64,000 nucleotides of DNA from a phage. Under the pieces are notes generated by a model. The model had not been told where the DNA came from, did not search any database, and was given only the letters and a program-made list of their open reading frames with translations. The stretch lies in assembly GCA_026066175.1 (NCBI GenBank), contig GCA_026066175.1_4721.2; one strand, given 5' to 3'. Below are positions 9,326-63,937 of this stretch, one piece after another (the stretch's first letter is position 1; every line of letters begins with the position of its first letter). Made by a program: the position numbers and the translations under genes.

Positions 9326-9931
9326 TTAACGACCCCGTTGCTGTTGTTGAATGATGAATTCTTCGATCTTCGTACCACGGAATTCGCTGTGACGAACCGC
9401 TTGCAGTTGCTCTTCAACGGTTGGGCCTGCATTGAGACCACCACGACGTGCACGGTGGATACCGATTTTACGTCGCTGACCGATTTCACGTAAACGTGAG
9501 GTTAACCCGCTCATTTCCGTCGGATCTTTAATACGTCCACGTGCAACGTTCCATAGACCACCCATGAACTCTTCGAGGATACGACTTGCTTCAAGCGAAG
9601 GCGCACGTGCGTTAGGATCGTTTTCAAGATTGTACTTTACATACTCCGTGTGCTCCAGAAGAAGCGTGAACATTTTCATCGCGTTGACATCAGGATTAGC
9701 GATACGCATCGGAACACCACGAGAGTGCTTTTCAGCGGCTTGTGGGATGGTAAGCTGTGCCGGTACCTCTTCGTTCATCGTCATATCGTCGATTTCTGCA
9801 ACCCCTGACGAGTAGACACCACTGACTTCGTTGGTATAGTTATCCACCATGAATTTACGGGGGATCCAGAATTCGAATTTACGTTCGAAAAGACGTTTGG
9901 TTGGGGTATCTTTAACGTGTTGTAGACTCAT
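9326..9931 (-). CDS. hypothetical protein (201 aa)
   Basis: ATG start; tightly packed with neighbours. Confidence 0.7.
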   Translation of the reverse strand: MSLQHVKDTPTKRLFERKFEFWIPRKFMVDNYTNEVSGVYSSGVAEIDDMTMNEEVPAQLTIPQAAEKHSRGVPMRIANPDVNAMKMFTLLLEHTEYVKYNLENDPNARAPSLEASRILEEFMGGLWNVARGRIKDPTEMSGLTSRLREIGQRRKIGIHRARRGGLNAGPTVEEQLQAVRHSEFRGTKIEEFIIQQQQRGR

Positions 9932-55274: not shown

Positions 55275-55844
55275 TCAACGATTCTTCATCACTTTACCCA
55301 GGCTTTCGATATTATCCCAAAAGCGATTTTTACTTGGCGCATCGCCGACGATAACCGACATCAAATCGCGACGTTCACGACTGATGATGCCCTGTGATTT
55401 CCAGATCACCATCGTCCAGCAAGCTGCCAGAACGAACAGATGGTTGATGCTTGGTTTGGTTTGCGCAATGAACGCAAGCCATGCCCAGATACCGGTATAT
55501 ACTAATGTCACTAAAAAGAGAGATATTGTCGCAATGACCACAACGAAGTTTTGGACAGCGGGTTGATTAGCGTTATCCTGAATAGCGGTAAGATCGGGAA
55601 GATTACCTTCAACTGAACTCGTTTCATCAATTTCCAATTCTTCGATTTCTTTTCGTGTGTCAGGAGCTAATCCAGCATCATCGAGATGCTTTTTTAACCG
55701 CTGTATGCTTAATCGTTGACCGACAGGAATGTTGATGTTGTCGTAACTATTAAGCGCATCGACCAGGGAACGACCGTCCACCAACACCAAACTCGCGGTA
55801 CCCATCGTTTGCGGTTTTATTTTGTAAAGGTCTTTTACTTTCAT
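55275..55844 (-). CDS. predicted membrane protein, two C-terminal TM helices (189 aa)
   Basis: Hydrophobic segments VVVIATISLFLVTLVYTGIWAWLAFIA and LFVLAACWTMVIW. Confidence 0.7.
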   Translation of the reverse strand: MKVKDLYKIKPQTMGTASLVLVDGRSLVDALNSYDNINIPVGQRLSIQRLKKHLDDAGLAPDTRKEIEELEIDETSSVEGNLPDLTAIQDNANQPAVQNFVVVIATISLFLVTLVYTGIWAWLAFIAQTKPSINHLFVLAACWTMVIWKSQGIISRERRDLMSVIVGDAPSKNRFWDNIESLGKVMKNR

Positions 55845-55865: not shown

Positions 55866-58478
55866 TTATGCGTCTGGTGTAAAATCAAAAGGAATGTCCA
55901 TACGAATGATATCATAACGTTTTCCTAGGAAATAGAACTCTTCGGGAACCTGACCGGGAATGATGCTATCACCGATGAACTGCGGATACGCCCAGATGTA
56001 CTGAGTGAGTCCTTCGAACATATCCAGGTTATTTGCGTGGTTACCCATGATGCGTTTCCAGAGTTCGCGTTTATACGGTGTTTTAACATCGAACCCATAA
56101 AGCGGTGCAAGATCTTCACCAGGAACAAATCCCAGGTAATAGTGAATCTGGTTAACTGGGAAACCAAGCGTATCTCGCGGAATGGTGATCGCTTGCTCAG
56201 CCTTGGTGACATGTGTCTCAATAATCCAGTCATAGCACTCTGAATAGAACCGATCGAATTTCTCTGGATTATACCACGCTTTGGGAAGATTGAGTTTCTC
56301 CGTGAATGCATTCGACATGATCGTCGGCAAGAACGGAAGAACACCGGTTTTGATCTGCGTGTATTTCGATTTTACCCGGTTAACCAGATTCCAGCAACTG
56401 TATCCTAACTGTTCGTTACAAAACTCAACGTAGAGATCGTAGTCGCCACCGGATAACGGGTTGTTAATATCACCGATGTCTGCGGCATATTTGTCAGGAT
56501 ATTGGTTATTGAAAGCCAGTTTGGTTTGGTAGTCGTAGATACACGGTTTGTTGTTCGCCGTGTTGATCCACCACCAGGGTTCACCTACTTGTACACAAAT
56601 GTCCTGGACATGAGGATAGATGATATCAGCAAATGCTGTTAACACATCCCCTAACCACGCCATCGCATATTGGTTACACGGAGACAGCAACCAAGACGGC
56701 GGCGTGTATCCGGTTGCTGCGATATTCCCTTCCCAATCTTGCTGTGCCCACTCGAACGGACACGCTGTACTCATCAATTCGTAACTTAAACTGATGGTTA
56801 CAGAGAAATGGTGTTTTGCAGCGAGTGCGGCGAAAGCTTCATGCCATGCAATACAGGGCGGATTTAATACATCCGTGGTGTTCACCAGTAGCTTACCCGC
56901 ACTCGGCGTCCAGACGGTGTCGTAGAAATGCGACATTCCAACATAGTGTACTAATTCATCCTGATATCCCGCATACACCAGGTTCTCGAACACGCGTTCT
57001 GGCGTGATGTTATAATGGTCATCATAAGCGGTTATCGCACGAAGTTCGTGTGGTGCGCAGTGGTGACGATTAACGGTCATTTCCTGATACACCCCATCGA
57101 TAGGAAGAATCTCGATGGTTAAACCGAGGTCGATCGGTGTTTCCAGATAGGTCGTTTCAGTCGCATCTTCCTTATAATGTCGAGAACTCATGCTGAACAT
57201 CAACGACGTTACCGATTCAAGTTCGATGGGCTCGTCAGCATAGAACCCCGCCATTGCGTCATTAAAATCGATCGTCACGGTCGCGCTTGTACCGTCTTCA
57301 GAGACGTCTGTCGCATATCGGGTTAATGAGATATACTGACGGCTATCGTCTTTGTGTACGACGGTTAAAACCGGCGGGTTTTCGGTATCCGCAAAGTTAC
57401 GCTGATCGCCGGTAAACGTGACCTTTGCTTTAAAGATCAAACCGAGTAACGACGTCATGGGATCATACGCGATACAACCGTGATCCAGCGTATCCGTTGT
57501 CCGCCATTCTACCCCGACCAACCCGTTAGCGGTATGACATCGCATATACGCGTTAAGAACCATGTCTTCACTGACGACCGCGAAGTTCTCTGTTGATTGA
57601 CCGTTGATAATCCAATACATCGGTTGCCAAAGATTGCGAGTACCTTTTGCATAGCGGTAGGTTGGTGCACCTTTGGGGTTGCCATTATTAAGATGAAATA
57701 CGGCAGTACCTTGATAATGGTCGTTCGTATTAATCGGAACACTGTAAGCATCACCGAGATCCGTACGTTCCACCTTCGTAATGGCTGCGTTTTCAAACAA
57801 CCCACGTAGCGCTGGTAAACCGATATCTGCAGGTGCGTTTTCACGACGTATCGCATCGGCAATACGATGAGCTAAGGCTGGGTAAATGACTTCACCTTGT
57901 TGCAGGTTCGCAAGCCCCGCAAAGCGATCGGGATCGATACCGGCAATTAACAACTCGATATCACCTTTCGTTCTATCGTCGTGAAGATATTTCAGTCCGG
58001 TAAGGTCGAGATGTTGAATAAGCGACAATAGGTTGTATTTACGGTTTTCGACGGTTAGTTCGAGATCGCCTGCCCAGACCAGACTTTCGTCATCGGCTGT
58101 TAAAGTAACGGTTTGTCGACCTGTGATGGATGTCGTCGTTATCTTATTTAATTGCTCTTGCAGGAAGTCTGTTGCAAGGTCAAAGGCAACGCCGTAGCGA
58201 TCGGCGACAGTTTGCATGATTTCACGTAACTGGGTATCTTCTTCAATGATAACCTTGATGGGTATTCCCAAGAACGCTTTAGCGAGGTCCCGTTTAACCG
58301 TCGAGACAAACACGGATTTGTAATATCGGCTTCCATCTTTCCCTTTAAAAAGAATGGAGGTTGTTTCGGGTGACGATAGAACACGTGCAAATTCAACATC
58401 GTCGAAGGTAAGAGAAAGTCCGTTTTTCTCGTTGGTCAATCTTAGTATTTCATTCTGCGCGGTTTCATGTAACTTCAT
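55866..58478 (-). CDS. virion protein with fibre-adaptor-like N-terminal module (870 aa)
   Basis: N-terminal 150 aa paralogous to the 63370-63897 product (KRDLAKAFLGIPIKVIIEE vs RRDIAKAFLGIPIKIVLES; LVWAGDLELTVEN vs MVWRGQLDLTVTN). Confidence 0.85.
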   Translation of the reverse strand: MKLHETAQNEILRLTNEKNGLSLTFDDVEFARVLSSPETTSILFKGKDGSRYYKSVFVSTVKRDLAKAFLGIPIKVIIEEDTQLREIMQTVADRYGVAFDLATDFLQEQLNKITTTSITGRQTVTLTADDESLVWAGDLELTVENRKYNLLSLIQHLDLTGLKYLHDDRTKGDIELLIAGIDPDRFAGLANLQQGEVIYPALAHRIADAIRRENAPADIGLPALRGLFENAAITKVERTDLGDAYSVPINTNDHYQGTAVFHLNNGNPKGAPTYRYAKGTRNLWQPMYWIINGQSTENFAVVSEDMVLNAYMRCHTANGLVGVEWRTTDTLDHGCIAYDPMTSLLGLIFKAKVTFTGDQRNFADTENPPVLTVVHKDDSRQYISLTRYATDVSEDGTSATVTIDFNDAMAGFYADEPIELESVTSLMFSMSSRHYKEDATETTYLETPIDLGLTIEILPIDGVYQEMTVNRHHCAPHELRAITAYDDHYNITPERVFENLVYAGYQDELVHYVGMSHFYDTVWTPSAGKLLVNTTDVLNPPCIAWHEAFAALAAKHHFSVTISLSYELMSTACPFEWAQQDWEGNIAATGYTPPSWLLSPCNQYAMAWLGDVLTAFADIIYPHVQDICVQVGEPWWWINTANNKPCIYDYQTKLAFNNQYPDKYAADIGDINNPLSGGDYDLYVEFCNEQLGYSCWNLVNRVKSKYTQIKTGVLPFLPTIMSNAFTEKLNLPKAWYNPEKFDRFYSECYDWIIETHVTKAEQAITIPRDTLGFPVNQIHYYLGFVPGEDLAPLYGFDVKTPYKRELWKRIMGNHANNLDMFEGLTQYIWAYPQFIGDSIIPGQVPEEFYFLGKRYDIIRMDIPFDFTPDA

Positions 58479-58500: not shown

Positions 58501-59142
58501 TTAGATGTACTGCTTACCGCCCACGAAGGACGTTAGCCAGTTCCCGCTGACGAGCTGTGACGCCCAACCTGGAACAGCTTTACCATTCTGGCTCATGATG
58601 TTACCACACCAACCAGGGAATCCGGGACGGATGTAATAGAAAGTTAAATTGTAGAGATGGCAATTCCATACCGCAACGTTATGTTTACCAGAAACCGCTT
58701 TAAAGACAAACGCGACAGGTAAAGGAGACGATAACAATTCGGTCACAGGGACAGCTGACCAGTTCGCATTCGCGTTCCATGGTTGCCATGTATGGCTACG
58801 CGAGTCGCAATATACGTTACCGTTGCTACCGCGTCCGCCCGCGTTCCACCAAAGCGATGGACTCATGTTCTTAAGTGATGTAAATTGCTGCGGTGGGATA
58901 TTCGGAATGATGACAGGGTTAGTACCTTGTCCATGTTTCTTTTCTTTTGCGTTCACATATCCGTTTATCGATTCAAGGTATTTAGTACCAGGATAATTGT
59001 TCTGGACTTGTGTTGCAATATCACGAACGTCGAACGTCCAGCAGATCATGGTGTTATAGTAAGCGTCGGTGTTGTCGTACCATGCGTTACCATCTTGTAA
59101 ACGTGCGCCGCTATTCGGTGTTTTATCTGTGCTTATAGCCAT
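58501..59142 (-). CDS. hypothetical protein, paralog of 59152 gene product (213 aa)
   Basis: C-terminal 40 aa nearly identical between paralogs (GFPGWCGNIMSQNGKAVPGWASQLVSGNWLTSFVGGKQY). Confidence 0.75.
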   Translation of the reverse strand: MAISTDKTPNSGARLQDGNAWYDNTDAYYNTMICWTFDVRDIATQVQNNYPGTKYLESINGYVNAKEKKHGQGTNPVIIPNIPPQQFTSLKNMSPSLWWNAGGRGSNGNVYCDSRSHTWQPWNANANWSAVPVTELLSSPLPVAFVFKAVSGKHNVAVWNCHLYNLTFYYIRPGFPGWCGNIMSQNGKAVPGWASQLVSGNWLTSFVGGKQYI

Positions 59143-59151
59143 GGTGTTGTC

Positions 59152-59919
59152 CTATACGTTGATGGTTGAGATGTCGGATGCCGGATGTGTGTTGTCATCC
59201 GGCGGTACGTACAGAAACACCCACAGATAAAACAGTAGCTTCTCTAACTTCAATTTAATTGAAGTTAGATATTGCTTACCTCCAACAAACGACGTTAGCC
59301 AGTTACCTGAAACAAGCTGCGATGCCCAGCCGGGTACAGCCTTACCGTTTTGACTCATCACGTTACCTGCCCAGCCTGGAAAACCCGGTCGGAAAATATA
59401 TACTTGAATATGCGTCAGTGCGTTATCATTACCACCGCCAACAGCAACGTTACGACTACCAGACGACGGGAAATATTCTTTTAAGAACAGGGGATCGGTT
59501 GCTAATAAAGAAGCAGGCCAAGGATTTGCAGATGCATCAACGTCGAATTCGGTCCAACTCCAATGACGGTTTGTGTCGAACCATGTTGACGTACCACCAC
59601 CTCTCACAGCAAGATTGCGCGCATCACGGACATTATAGATCGATTCGATGTTACGCCATCCGCCTTTCGCGGCGTTTGCTGCATAGCAAATCGCATTACC
59701 ACCATTCTTCTTCTCGAAAACGGTTCGTTTGATATGAACACGGTCGATAAACGCCTCACCGTATTTGTTGACGAGTGTTTGTGCGATATCACGAAGATCG
59801 TGCATATGGAAAGCGATGTCTTCGTTATGAAACCATGTTGTTGCATTCCAAACAGTACCGTTTGGTTCAGCACACATCGATCGGATATTGTTGCGTTGAT
59901 TAATCGCGATAAAACCCAT
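59152..59919 (-). CDS. hypothetical protein, paralog of 58501 gene product (about 256 aa)
   Basis: ATG at 59919 (GAGGT SD) preferred; alternative ATG at 59970 abuts the hairpin. Confidence 0.7.
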   Translation of the reverse strand: MGFIAINQRNNIRSMCAEPNGTVWNATTWFHNEDIAFHMHDLRDIAQTLVNKYGEAFIDRVHIKRTVFEKKNGGNAICYAANAAKGGWRNIESIYNVRDARNLAVRGGGTSTWFDTNRHWSWTEFDVDASANPWPASLLATDPLFLKEYFPSSGSRNVAVGGGNDNALTHIQVYIFRPGFPGWAGNVMSQNGKAVPGWASQLVSGNWLTSFVGGKQYLTSIKLKLEKLLFYLWVFLYVPPDDNTHPASDISTINV

Positions 59920-59974
59920 TGTATACCTCGTTCCTATTCTCAAAAAGGAAATTTCATACGATGACGCCATAGCG

Positions 59975-60006
59975 GCCCCTCCCGACCCGTAAGGGAAGGG
60001 AGGGGC
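59975..60006 (-). terminator. conserved palindromic hairpin, variant GCCCCTCCC-GACCCGTAAGGGAA-GGGAGGGGC
   Basis: Same architecture with GTAA loop. Confidence 0.5.
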
Positions 60007-60018
60007 GCACACTATGAA

Positions 60019-60525
60019 CTATTTACCGATAACTTCAACAGAATCAGGATCCGCGATTAACGCACGATCGGTTGAGCAGTTGAAGAAGACCATACCAACA
60101 CCATCACCATTCGAGTTCAGGGTTGAACTTACGTAAGACAATGTTGGTTTATTCATACGGTAGAAGCGTTCGCTGGTGGTGGTATTAAAGCCTAGATCAA
60201 CGTAGTCTTTTACCGTGGTGTACAACTGTGTGGATTCGAACACGGTTACCGGAGAGTCCACCGTAAACTGACTACCCTCGTCGACAACCAGAACTTTATC
60301 GTTCCAGATTTCAGTGGTTGAAAACTTCGGTTTCCAATGTTCGAACTCTTGGGTCGCACCCCAGCAAGAATAAACAGCAAGATTGCTGTTCTTCTCAACA
60401 GGTTTCAACCCCACCAGTTGCGTCAGGTCTTTATCCAGGTTCGGTAAGCCTTCCAGCGTAGCGCATCCACCCAGAGAAAGTACCATCAACATACCAAGAA
60501 TAATCGCGCAAAGTTTTTTCATCAT
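60019..60525 (-). CDS. putative outer-membrane lipoprotein (168 aa)
   Basis: Signal peptide MMKKLCAIILGMLMVLSLGG followed by Cys (lipobox-like LGGC, Ala at +2); AAGGAA SD. Confidence 0.7.
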   Translation of the reverse strand: MMKKLCAIILGMLMVLSLGGCATLEGLPNLDKDLTQLVGLKPVEKNSNLAVYSCWGATQEFEHWKPKFSTTEIWNDKVLVVDEGSQFTVDSPVTVFESTQLYTTVKDYVDLGFNTTTSERFYRMNKPTLSYVSSTLNSNGDGVGMVFFNCSTDRALIADPDSVEVIGK

Positions 60526-60573: not shown

Positions 60574-63363
60574 TTACTTTTTGAGCGCTTTAAGTTCTTC
60601 TTCCAACGCTTCCACTTTCGTCGTAAGCTTCTGTACTTGTTTGATTAATGGAACCACCAAACGTTCGTACATAACACCTTCAGCAACCAACCCATTAGAA
60701 GAAACGATGGCGGGGTCATCTTCTTCGGTTGCATCACGCCAGTGCACGTATTGTGGTGCTATCTCACCGACCTCTTCGGCAATCAACCCATACCAACCCC
60801 AATCCTTGTTGTCCGCTTCGCAGGTAGAACGATACCAAACAGGACGCATCTCCAATACTTTATCCGCTTGTTCATCCGTGATATTCTCGATATCTTTCTT
60901 ATAGCGACGTGACGACGTTGAACGGAACACATTGTTGATCCCAGCAACAGGACTGATATACATATTAGCCCCGCTGGTTGTAGTGCTAATGTCCCATACC
61001 GCAAATCCGCCGTTACTCCCATTTTTTACTACCAACGTATTGGCAATAATGTCCAGGTTATTGTCGTACCCGGTTAACTGGTTTTCCGTTACATAACTGG
61101 ATAGGTTAACCGAGTAGTTCTTACTGTTATAACAACGACGCCATCCTGGGCTGTTGGTGCTGCCGTTATAGTTGTCGTAGCTATAAATGAACTCGGAGTT
61201 GGTTTTCGCCCCACTGACGGAAGACGTGGTAGCGGTTGTAACACGGATGGTGTAGTTTGTCATCCCGAAGCTAACGACCTCGATAACAGCGCCAGCCAGA
61301 GGGATGATCCCGCATTTGGTTTCACTGTCTGGGATGTATGCGCTATCGGCAGCAGCGAAGGAGCAACGTGCGACCCAAGCACGAGTGTTGAAGGCTCCAT
61401 GGTTTTGCAGTAATGTGATAAACGAGGACGTTGTAATCGAGCTGTTATTATCACCGGTGATCAACCAGCCGGTTGGACATGCAGTTGCACCAACGTTTTT
61501 CGCTGTTAGCGTGATGTTCTGTGATCCGTCGAAGGCTACGCCGCTAATAGTACGCGCAGTCTGTAGCTTCGTCGCCGTTGCTGCGTTCCCTGACGTGTTC
61601 TGATTACCTGCTTTGTTCACGCCTGGTAAATCAATGTTGGCGGTTCCATCGAAGCTGACGCCGCCTATTGTTCTTGCTGTAGCGAGTTTCGTTGCTGTGG
61701 TTGCAGCATTACCAACCTTTAACCATTCGCCCCATGGACCATCGATGCCGTTCCATGATGCTGTTAAACTACGTACGTAAATATTTCCGGTACGTACAGT
61801 GTAACGTTGCGTTCCACCGAACTGTCCAGCTGGGAGCACTTCGATATAACCTACCGCGTTTGCTTCAGGGAAATTGTGGGCAACATCAGCATTCGTTGAT
61901 GTTTGTTTAGACCAAATACCTACGGACTCCTCTACCGGACCGTAGGTATCCAGATTTGCGTCGGTGGGGAGCTGTCCTCGAAAACGTCGGAATAATGATG
62001 CTGTTAACCCCAACGTTGTTTGCATTCCTTGAACGCTTGACTGCGATAAAAGCGCCCGCGCTGTCGACGTAATGGCAGCTAAAGCAACCTTGTCGGCTCC
62101 GGTGAAAAATGGGAATTTGTTCGCCGAGGTCGTTAAGCCTGAAAGGGCTGTTAGTAATGCGTTAAGGGGTTGTTTTCCGGCTAACGCGTTAGTTATCGTC
62201 GTTGCGAAATTAGGATCGTTGCCTAAAGCTTGAGCCAGCTCATTAAGCGTATTTAGCGCTTCTGGAGACGAGTCAATCAGCGACGCGATAGCACGCATTA
62301 CAAATTCCGTGTTGGCAATCTGTTGACTGCTATCATTCTCTGCAGCCGTTGGCGCTGCTGGGATACCGGTGAATACAGGGTTATTAAGATCTGCCTTGAG
62401 GGCGATGAGACGTCTAAGCGCTTCAACATCGACTCTCAGGTTTTCCCATCCGACGAGATAACCTTCATCGGTTGTGTGATAACGGTTGTACCAAAAATCG
62501 CCATTAACACCGAAAAAGAATATTCCCTTCTCTTCGTATTGTGGGCCAGAACTGTTCCGCGATGAGCTAATGTATTTTATTTCGATAAGGCCGTTGAATA
62601 CCACTCCTGGGATAATTTTGTCGTTTCCATGCAATTGTGATACCTGGTACGCCCCCGGCGTTGCGGTTCTAATCCACGTTAAGAATTCCGATGTTCCAGC
62701 GTTACCGCTAAAATGCTTGGCGTCGGTGAGTATCGCACCAAAACCGAACATACCGGGTAAAGCAACTCGTCCATCGGTACGGTCACGAATATCTGTCGCA
62801 ACAACGGGCAATTGTTTACGAACGTCATTAACCGCTTTAGGTGTTGCTGATTTTGTCTCGTCGTCGCTCTCAGTATCATTGCTCAGGATGGTCAGTCCTC
62901 GAGTATCTGTGGTCGCATCAGGAAGAAACGCGTTATCCAACACCTTAAGCTGTATTGCATCCGTGTTACTAACAGCAACATACACCTGGCAGTTAAGAAC
63001 GCTGGTTGCGCCTTCGGTGGGCACAGGCTTATATCTTTCTGGTGCGCTGCAGACGGCGACCAGAACACCTTGATCGTCATACAGACCGATCTCACGTACC
63101 CAGAACCCACCTTGACTGGTGGGAATAATGCCTTCAACAATAATCCGGGTTGTGTCGTCAACATCAATGCGGATGTTGGAAACTTCCCCACGATAAACTT
63201 CGTGTATAAGTGCCGTTTGGCTAGCATCGGGGGTTGGTGTAGAGCCGTTACTGTCACCAACGGCAAAATGCGTGATTTTTAGTTTCTCACCGTCAGGAAG
63301 TAATGCTGCGGTGATACGTTCTGCGCCTTTATCGGTAATAACCGTTTTATATGTTGTACTCAT
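60574..63363 (-). CDS. tail fibre protein with C-terminal S74-type intramolecular chaperone domain (929 aa)
   Basis: N-terminus MSTTYKTVITDKGAERITAAL...ITHFAVGDSNG...EVYRGEV...VEGIIPTSQGGFWVREIGLYD matches the phage tail-fibre N-terminal domain; C-terminus SSRRYKKDIENI...LEMRPVWYR...YGLIAEEVGEIAPQYV...MYERLVVPLIKQVQKL matches the self-cleaving chaperone domain. Confidence 0.9.
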   Translation of the reverse strand: MSTTYKTVITDKGAERITAALLPDGEKLKITHFAVGDSNGSTPTPDASQTALIHEVYRGEVSNIRIDVDDTTRIIVEGIIPTSQGGFWVREIGLYDDQGVLVAVCSAPERYKPVPTEGATSVLNCQVYVAVSNTDAIQLKVLDNAFLPDATTDTRGLTILSNDTESDDETKSATPKAVNDVRKQLPVVATDIRDRTDGRVALPGMFGFGAILTDAKHFSGNAGTSEFLTWIRTATPGAYQVSQLHGNDKIIPGVVFNGLIEIKYISSSRNSSGPQYEEKGIFFFGVNGDFWYNRYHTTDEGYLVGWENLRVDVEALRRLIALKADLNNPVFTGIPAAPTAAENDSSQQIANTEFVMRAIASLIDSSPEALNTLNELAQALGNDPNFATTITNALAGKQPLNALLTALSGLTTSANKFPFFTGADKVALAAITSTARALLSQSSVQGMQTTLGLTASLFRRFRGQLPTDANLDTYGPVEESVGIWSKQTSTNADVAHNFPEANAVGYIEVLPAGQFGGTQRYTVRTGNIYVRSLTASWNGIDGPWGEWLKVGNAATTATKLATARTIGGVSFDGTANIDLPGVNKAGNQNTSGNAATATKLQTARTISGVAFDGSQNITLTAKNVGATACPTGWLITGDNNSSITTSSFITLLQNHGAFNTRAWVARCSFAAADSAYIPDSETKCGIIPLAGAVIEVVSFGMTNYTIRVTTATTSSVSGAKTNSEFIYSYDNYNGSTNSPGWRRCYNSKNYSVNLSSYVTENQLTGYDNNLDIIANTLVVKNGSNGGFAVWDISTTTSGANMYISPVAGINNVFRSTSSRRYKKDIENITDEQADKVLEMRPVWYRSTCEADNKDWGWYGLIAEEVGEIAPQYVHWRDATEEDDPAIVSSNGLVAEGVMYERLVVPLIKQVQKLTTKVEALEEELKALKK

Positions 63364-63369
63364 GGCGTT

Positions 63370-63897
63370 TTATCCCGGGTAAATAGCGATGACATCACCA
63401 ATGACAGTTGCCGCACCAGCGTATAAATAAGCTGGAGATGCCTCACGTTGGTTTGTCACGGTAAGATCCAATTGTCCACGCCAAACCATGGAGGTATTCG
63501 CGATGGGAATCGAGATCTTCTTGGATGTGTCGTCACGAAAATCAATGACAGTAGCAAGGATAGCTGAATCAAAATCGACATCGGTTTCAAAGATGAATCC
63601 GTACTGATCTGAAATAGCTTGTATAACCGCTCTTATAGTTGTTGTTTCAACCGACTCCAAAACGATTTTTATCGGTATCCCTAGAAACGCTTTCGCGATA
63701 TCACGTCGTGCGTAAGTGATAAAACTTTCACCACACCACCTTGTTCCTTCATTTGCTGTGACGATCACTTTTGCCCTGTTAGCACCAGAACTCCCATCCA
63801 GGGTTAAAGTGAGATCGGAGTTACTGAACACGCTACCGTTACGTTGGTTTATCAACGTAATCAGTTCGTCTTTCCACGGCAGGTAAAGTGAACGCAT
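63370..63897 (-). CDS. fibre-adaptor-like N-terminal module protein (about 175 aa)
   Basis: ATG at 63897 with GGAGGAGGG SD (listed start is TTG); paralogous to the N-terminus of the 870-aa protein. Confidence 0.7.
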   Translation of the reverse strand: MRSLYLPWKDELITLINQRNGSVFSNSDLTLTLDGSSGANRAKVIVTANEGTRWCGESFITYARRDIAKAFLGIPIKIVLESVETTTIRAVIQAISDQYGFIFETDVDFDSAILATVIDFRDDTSKKISIPIANTSMVWRGQLDLTVTNQREASPAYLYAGAATVIGDVIAIYPG

Positions 63898-63937
63898 AAG
63901 CGCACCCTCCTCCAACAATCAAATTAAGATGCAAAAC

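Follow-up and report, generated by a model that had tools for sequence, protein, structure and literature searches.

Two paralogous genes in the tail-fibre module of a Goslar-like phage

We analysed a 64,000-nucleotide stretch of phage DNA (contig GCA_026066175.1_4721.2; the whole stretch is called the window below), which is ~90% identical to the DNA of Escherichia phage vB_EcoM_Goslar, a nucleus-forming jumbo phage. Our subject is a pair of adjacent genes on its minus strand, here called A and B, whose products share a nearly identical module of ~40 residues. Gene A (58501-59142, minus strand) encodes a protein of 213 aa, the orthologue of Goslar gp087 (QBO63880.1 / HOV27_gp087). A jelly-roll domain is predicted for residues 1-173 of A; after it comes the conserved C-terminal module (58507-58626, minus strand; residues 173-212; PGFPGWCGNIMSQNGKAVPGWASQLVSGNWLTSFVGGKQY). 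Gene B (59152-59919, minus strand; the "B1" type) encodes 255 aa, including a 34-residue stop-loss tail, and is a diverged paralogue of A that occupies the slot deleted in Goslar. Its copy of the module lies at 59269-59388 (minus strand; residues 178-217; PGFPGWAGNVMSQNGKAVPGWASQLVSGNWLTSFVGGKQY), and its head, at 59389-59919 (minus strand), is an exchangeable N-domain cassette flanked by the conserved upstream spacer and the start codon and, at its other end, by the motif. The sequences of A and B show neither a signal peptide nor a membrane segment. Along the minus strand, the genes follow each other in the order tail fibre (929 aa), lipoprotein-like gene (168 aa), B, A, and an 870-aa DUF7941/TIM-barrel protein, and the pair thus resides in a tail-fibre / peripheral-baseplate module. 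An earlier reading of the letters without database searches (the sequence-only reading) had placed A and B between two fibre-like genes; this is accurate for one flank, which is a true tail fibre, but the other flank is the DUF7941/TIM-barrel protein.

The ends of B required attention. An open reading frame (ORF) finder stretches the gene upstream to 60012, but the gene really begins at the ATG at 59919, because this codon is preceded by a GAGG ribosome-binding site (RBS) and because the homology with Goslar intergenic DNA ends at 59916. The in-frame MASSYEISFLRI stretch upstream of B is a conserved spacer that gene callers sometimes include. This spacer, which separates the lipoprotein-like gene from B (59920-60018, minus strand), contains a stem-loop rich in G+C (CCCCTCCC...GGGAGGGG). 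It also has an in-frame ATG (59970), owing to which ORF callers report B proteins that are too long, e.g., the 235-aa call of P0003. At the other end, A terminates with GGKQYI-stop, in agreement with the sequence-only reading, which had both proteins ending with the motif; B, in contrast, continues past GGKQY with LTSI and 34 further residues (KLKLEK...STINV) up to a TAG at 59152-59154. P0004, L003 and L033 have the same 255-aa form, and L031 has a partial copy of it (L numbers designate the related loci that we collected). For genome annotation, both ends of B are thus corrected, the start to 59919 and the stop by the stop-loss tail.

The paralogues are ancient and their C-terminal module is under strong purifying selection

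The two proteins are 38% identical (BLASTP, E = 3e-36), and this identity is distributed very unevenly: in segments of 20 residues, it amounts to 5-40% over the N-terminal ~160 aligned residues and to 90-100% over the last ~40. Between GFPGW and GGKQY, i.e., over 39 codons, 37 of the 39 residues are identical (the differences are C/A and I/V), whereas their DNA is only ~74% identical and 22 codons differ synonymously. Over the 40-codon motif PGFPGW...GGKQY, 31 of the 120 nucleotides differ. Using the Nei-Gojobori method, we obtained pS = 0.92 and pN = 0.06 for the motif (dN ~0.065), against pS = 0.78 and pN = 0.55 for the N-terminal part. Constraint is also visible between orthologues, with omega values of 0.06 for B (B1 type) and of 0.03-0.12 for A; the B gene and its L003 orthologue differ with dN 0.026 and dS 0.44. 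Because the synonymous sites of the motif are saturated, the copies are ancient and strongly constrained, and do not result from a recent duplication. A and B are therefore old paralogues (or one of them is a homologue that recombined in). This agrees with the sequence-only reading, which had noticed a near-identical C-terminus over divergent DNA, had attributed it to long-term purifying selection rather than to recent duplication, and would have been overturned by motif copies near-identical at the DNA level; the codon-level comparison that it called for gives the values listed above.

The same reading had raised a second possibility, namely that selection against recombination between the tandem copies drives or maintains the synonymous divergence of the motif. 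Recombination between 120-nt direct repeats would presumably remove one gene, and the pS of the motif (0.92) is nominally above that of the N-domain (0.78). However, saturation alone accounts for the divergence: 34 of the identical residues can be encoded by more than one codon, and 24 of these use different codons in the two genes, when 21.9 +/- 2.7 are expected from two independent random draws from the window's own codon usage (P = 0.27). There is therefore no signal of selection for divergence. Furthermore, the relatives show conversion tracts and cassette breakpoints precisely at the motif, and the sole deletion of the B slot that we observed did not go through the motif repeats (see below). 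We regard this explanation as exceedingly improbable.

The motif is the signature of a small phage family

No match to A, B or their distant relatives was found in Pfam, PHROGs or NCBIfam, and searches of the Protein Data Bank (PDB) by sequence, with the family profile or with the 45-residue motif alone, returned nothing meaningful. The relatives of A and B are few: 4 clusters among 5.8 billion proteins in a word-indexed search, 11 representatives among 1.84 billion in a full profile search, and none when 185,579 genomes of bacteria and archaea were scanned. The family is thus small, previously undescribed and without a curated model, although it represents a familiar kind of protein. As found so far, it is exclusive to phages and confined to enterobacterial jumbo phages (of E. 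coli, Serratia and Salmonella). When 13 members are aligned, 16 columns (excluding the start methionine) are invariant or nearly so, and 11 of these fall in the motif. The motif is therefore a signature that marks the family as a whole, beyond the A/B pair; it is retained even in members with 22-30% overall identity.

The distant members include hypothetical proteins of Serratia phage PCH45 (QFP93093.1, 370 aa) and Salmonella phage SPLA10 (WNT47125.1, 218 aa). They resemble A and B (22-30% identity) in having a jelly-roll and the motif. Their genes immediately follow that of a Peptidase_S74 fibre: in these two phages and in related metagenomic contigs, the family gene starts 35-45 nt after a fibre of ~575 aa. 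It closes the structural operon there and is adjoined, on the opposite strand, by a phiKZ gp164-like baseplate gene. In contrast to A and B, these members are single-copy and lack an adjacent lipoprotein gene. Some members, of 316-368 aa, differ further in that they continue past the motif into an additional domain of ~140 residues, predicted to be beta-rich in a low-confidence model (that of the long form P0013, pLDDT 62.6, is too poor to identify the domain). The C-terminus of the family thus tolerates additions. In Serratia phage Moabite, the equivalent position is occupied by a 175-aa homologue of this extra domain. The fibre of the window and the S74 fibre of PCH45 have no region in common beyond a weak match in the chaperone domain, and hence no common fibre partner was found.

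The predicted heads resemble carbohydrate-binding modules at the level of the fold

We modelled A with AlphaFold2 on the 13-sequence alignment. Residues 1-173 are predicted with confidence as a beta-sandwich (pLDDT ~85-94), whereas the conserved module (pLDDT 48-65) is modelled as a helix plus a long loop, after which the last strand, GGKQYI, rejoins the sheet. The predicted jelly-roll is comparable to solved carbohydrate-binding modules (CBMs), e.g., to the beta-sandwich domains of PDB entries 7vbo (alginate-binding) and 8wab (chondroitin-sulfate-binding, DNRLRE-type). The likeness is one of fold only: sequence identity is 6-11%, there is no profile match, and the invariant 40-residue module of A and B has no counterpart in either structure. 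Among predicted viral structures, the hits of the model include Goslar gp087, a family member of 370 aa, and tail-fibre/tail, CBM96 and pectate-lyase proteins of phages. A lectin-like head would therefore be suggested by a fold-level resemblance in the models, as distinct from a demonstrated membership of a lectin family.

The lectin-like reading places the binding site on the jelly-roll, but the roles could be reversed, the invariant Trp/Gly/Asn-rich module being the ligand site (e.g., for the inner core of lipopolysaccharide or for the enterobacterial common antigen) and the jelly-roll serving as scaffold or virion contact. The motif contains three conserved tryptophans plus Gly, Asn and Gln, a composition that is typical of the sugar-binding loops of CBMs. 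It is modelled as an excursion of ~35 residues between two strands of the sandwich and not as a free tail, and it is conserved across phages infecting E. coli, Serratia and Salmonella, whose fibres show no relationship apart from the S74 domain, all members so far being from enterobacterial phages or from contigs resembling such phages. Yet an invariant receptor site would be unusual where genomes freely swap fibres and B heads, the maintenance of two copies of one binding site would go unexplained, and the module is the low-confidence part of the models. We thus consider this reversal unlikely, and retain the jelly-roll as the candidate binding part in what follows.

The B slot was lost once, and its head is exchanged with a breakpoint at the motif

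We compared 25 related loci, including the window, for the content of the two slots. Genes A and B1 are found together in the window and in L003, L027, L028, L031 and L033, whereas L002 and L029 carry A together with B2, i.e., a B gene with an unrelated head type. Sixteen loci, including Goslar (L001), L004-L015, L030 and L032, have A only, and L019 has a B1-like copy only. None of the 25 lacks both genes. The A-only loci share an identical deletion junction (TTCACGTCCAGCACGCATCCG), at which codons 1-11 of a B2 gene run directly into the last part of the B-A spacer. This indicates that B was lost once in the Goslar clade, by a deletion of ~675 bp. In Goslar, a gap of 178 nt lies where B would be, and the slot is reduced to an 84-nt remnant. 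The A-only genomes all retain the same piece of a B2 gene (in L001 at 9704-9880), a 24-codon ORF (MAIARTIGFTSSTHPISATSTTNI) that is preceded by an RBS and in which the start of B2 is fused in frame to the end of the spacer.

Goslar thus has a single copy, gp087 (Goslar_00087, QBO63880.1 / YP_009820772.1), that resembles A in its length (213 aa), its sequence (~96-97% identical) and its position upstream of the 870-aa DUF7941 gene. In the literature, gp087 is present as an entry in a supplementary table only, with no published function. Copy A can apparently be lost as well: that of L002 (2441-3082) has a TGA in place of the W98 codon, a G200R change at an invariant position and a GTG instead of an ATG start, next to an intact B2. 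From these changes it looks like a pseudogene, but the assembly is a single metagenomic one and a sequencing error is possible. Since the A of L002 is decayed, L019 lacks A, and the A-only loci lack B, either copy seems dispensable.

The exchange of B heads left a clear trace. The N-domains of B1 and B2 (L002) are saturated (pS 0.77, pN 0.58), whereas the DNA of their motifs is close (pS 0.39), with 10 differing codons where 22.8 are expected (z = -4.7). The head of B was therefore replaced as a cassette between the upstream spacer and the motif, and the B motif (59269-59388) is the 3' breakpoint of this swap. The proteins hence combine an invariant part, putatively for attachment, with an exchangeable, putatively binding part whose versions are saturated with differences.

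The motif also recombines between the A and B types. The Goslar A gene contains, within the motif, a tract of 55 nt with 3 differences from B2 and 15-16 from the other A copies; outside this tract, the gene is identical to the closest A copies and differs from the B copies at 33-34 sites. By this pattern, the tract, which distinguishes the gp087 motif from that of the window, is a gene conversion from a B2-type donor. The tract is absent from other A-only genomes that have the same deletion, so the donor need not have been the gene next to A; a co-infecting relative may have supplied it. The A copy of L014, which has B-like states (GCA...GTG), represents a possible conversion only, as none of the sampled B copies stands clearly nearer to its tract (7-10 versus 10-11 differences). 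No recent exchange is seen between the A and B genes of the window. The motif therefore acts as a patch of homology for gene conversion between copies, which speaks against a selection against recombination.

B heads correlate with fibre types in a few genomes, and the A orthologue is detected in a virion preparation

The tail fibre of the window (60574-63363, minus strand, 929 aa) has an N-terminal Phage_tail_fib domain and a C-terminal Peptidase_S74 intramolecular chaperone (Pfam). Across the loci, fibres have one of three C-terminal types: the Peptidase_S74 self-chaperone, a P1 gpS-like end that depends on a tail fibre assembly protein (Tfa), or an end in ...GATNQGY without a chaperone gene. 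The three versions, in otherwise collinear genomes, form a host-range mosaic. We found B1 only with S74 fibres (4 of the 4 loci of known fibre), whereas B2 accompanies the two remaining types (2 of 2) and the A-only genomes carry all three. Since these genomes descend from a single ancestral deletion of ~675 bp, this points to fibre types having been exchanged repeatedly after it. The lipoprotein-like gene between the fibre and B does not follow the partition of B and fibre types; as it has different histories, the association between B1 and S74 survived recombination between the fibre and B genes. This is suggestive of a functional coupling, within a set of few and related genomes.

The Goslar virion has been the subject of a 2026 preprint, in which the peripheral baseplate and the tail fibres are unresolved by cryo-EM (bioRxiv 10.64898/2026.04.21.720040). 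Proteomics of purified virions nonetheless lists gp087 with 4 peptides, 28.6% coverage and ~19 copies (13-30), along with ~43 copies of the gp090 fibre, ~52 of the gp089 assembly protein, ~4.5 of gp086 and ~737 of the lipoprotein-like gp088 (Table S4, bioRxiv 10.64898/2026.04.21.720040). The mass that we calculated for gp087, 23,641.5 Da, is the mass given in that table.

The detection of gp087 fits a structural as well as a chaperone role, since gp089, a bona fide assembly protein, likewise turns up in virions. A and B might thus be factors for the assembly or maturation of fibres, chaperone-like and at most minor passengers of the virion, as would fit their location downstream of fibre genes, like that of tail fibre assembly proteins, and the correlation between B type and fibre type. 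Several observations argue otherwise. The proteins match neither Caudo_TAP (PF02413) nor any chaperone family, and a CBM-like jelly-roll is atypical of fibre chaperones. The fibre of the window has its own Peptidase_S74 chaperone, while in Goslar and L002 the true Tfa is a separate gene. Finally, A is constant across the three fibre types, and L019 retains a member without an adjacent fibre. An assembly role is, in our view, quite unlikely.

Another candidate partner is the lipoprotein-like gene (60019-60525, minus strand, 168 aa), which has a lipobox, LGGC (...LSLGGC), belongs to phrog_9559 and is the orthologue of Goslar gp088. In every Goslar-like locus, it is the gene immediately preceding the paralogue slot, and it was kept with the B1-like gene in L019. 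This would fit a role outside the virion, e.g., an activity directed at the envelope (receptor masking, superinfection exclusion or a lysis accessory), in which the module would contact the lipoprotein. The location of P0006 among small genes that do not look structural points in the same direction. Yet A and B have neither signal peptide nor membrane segment, so that they would stay in the cytoplasm while the lipoprotein is exported. The PCH45 and SPLA10 members follow a fibre gene and have no lipoprotein gene next to them, and gp087 peptides are found in virion preparations. A function coupled to the lipoprotein is thus very unlikely.

A putative docking module for variable heads

Taken together, these results make a receptor-binding or fibre-associated role of A and B plausible. 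We propose that they are low-copy accessory proteins of the virion, each made of an N-terminal beta-jelly-roll of ~170 residues and a nearly invariant, Trp-, Gly- and Asn-rich module of ~40 residues. The variable jelly-roll head would bind a glycan of the host surface, and the invariant module would dock this head on a conserved partner in the virion, at the peripheral baseplate or on a fibre. With variable heads and a shared module, a genome encoding both A and B would carry two binding specificities on one docking chemistry. We give this proposal a probability of roughly 45%.

A number of observations weigh against it. The module that would dock is the least confident part of both models (A and the long form P0013). 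The fold of the head is a generic one: Foldseek does return 7vbo, but with a poor E-value (3e-3), its matches include picornavirus capsid proteins and generic viral jelly-rolls, and neither A and B nor the distant members have a sequence match to a curated CBM family. In the virion proteome, thymidylate synthase is present at a copy number similar to that of gp087 (Table S4), and the authors report that non-virion assemblies co-purified in the Goslar preparation (bioRxiv 10.64898/2026.04.21.720040); the detection of gp087 is therefore supportive but weak. The association between B1 and S74 is drawn from a handful of related genomes, and L030 combines an S74 fibre with the loss of B. L019, which lacks A, the fibre and the 870-aa gene, kept its B1-like gene with no fibre next to it, and the surroundings of P0006, mentioned above, do not look structural.

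The closest functional parallels are the gp38 adhesins of T2-type phages and the Tfa proteins (Caudo_TAP) of Mu, P1 and P2, small proteins encoded next to fibre genes that have a conserved and a variable part and whose exchange as cassettes alters specificity. A and B resemble them in their size, their position next to fibre genes, their division into conserved and variable parts, and their cassette-like exchange. They show no relationship to them in sequence or fold, and their polarity is the reverse: in gp38, the conserved N-terminus attaches and the variable C-terminus binds, as in most phage receptor-binding proteins, whereas in A and B the C-terminus is conserved and the N-terminus variable.

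The docking proposal can be extended further. The 40-residue module could be a universal "plug" by which interchangeable lectin heads are mounted, in the nucleus-forming jumbo phages of enterobacteria, on a single conserved socket of the peripheral baseplate, genomes with both A and B giving virions of mixed specificity, with the motif doubling as a recombination handle for the swap of heads between phages. We see this extension as doubtful. If true, it would represent a host-range cassette system of reversed polarity, with a C-terminal anchor and an N-terminal head. More generally, A and B are small candidates for the host-recognition parts of jumbo phages, one copy (A) being constant and the other (B) exchangeable; the conserved module could be used as bait for the docking partner, and the motif and the upstream spacer are natural junctions for head swaps in phage engineering. 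The finding amounts to a modest new lead on host recognition in Goslar-like phages, and not to a new kind of system.

The tail of B and the B-A spacer

The 34-codon extension of B (59155-59256, minus strand; LLFYLWVFLYVPPDDNTHPASDISTINV would be a peptide diagnostic of it) reads through what was formerly the spacer between B and A, starting with an AAA codon at 59254-59256. This codon, which follows YLTSI, is TAA in L027 and L028 and AAA in the window, L003, L031, L033 and P0004; other members of the family terminate with YL(T/N)x(I/L)-stop. The codon lies in the 3-nt loop of a perfect hairpin with a stem of 11-12 bp (59243-59269, minus strand; CTAACTTCAAT-TAA-ATTGAAGTTAG). The stem of L031 has a compensatory change from A:T to G:C, so selection probably acts on the hairpin at the level of the nucleic acid. 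In B2-type loci, its second arm (9 nt) is missing. A second hairpin in the spacer (59180-59203, minus strand; GCCGGATG-N8-CATCCGGC) survives with its 3' half in the deletion remnant of Goslar, and the spacer as a whole (59140-59290) folds far better than shuffled controls (z = -4.4).

On the other hand, the spacer is open in the frame of B in all loci, and the close B1 loci differ in it by 6 synonymous versus 2 non-synonymous changes. This pattern of changes suggests that the translation of the tail may matter. A programmed frameshift or readthrough at the hairpin of B was set aside, since no slippery sequence was found. The candidates for the spacer are an RNA structure, a translated tail, or a small separate ORF (L027 has a TTG after the stop).

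Other neighbouring genes

The copy number of gp088 in virions (~737) is odd for an exported lipoprotein; the protein could be a component of the virion or a carry-over from outer-membrane vesicles. In L019, where the fibre and the 870-aa genes are missing, the mature part of the lipoprotein-like protein is 91% identical to that of the window and the signal peptide is different.

The 870-aa protein (55866-58478, minus strand), orthologue of Goslar gp086, matches DUF7941, NCTSP_N and TIM-barrel_NCTSP in Pfam. The Goslar structure paper counts it among the DUF7941 "fibre cloud" proteins (bioRxiv 10.64898/2026.04.21.720040). The DUF7941 module (PF25613) of these Chimalliviridae proteins is unmatched in A and B, and is matched in the neighbours at 55866-58478 and 63370-63918 (Pfam). 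Downstream of the 870-aa gene, a protein of 189 aa (55275-55844, minus strand), for which no family match was found, is a homologue of Goslar gp085, estimated at ~4.6 copies per virion, and contains hydrophobic stretches that resemble two membrane segments.

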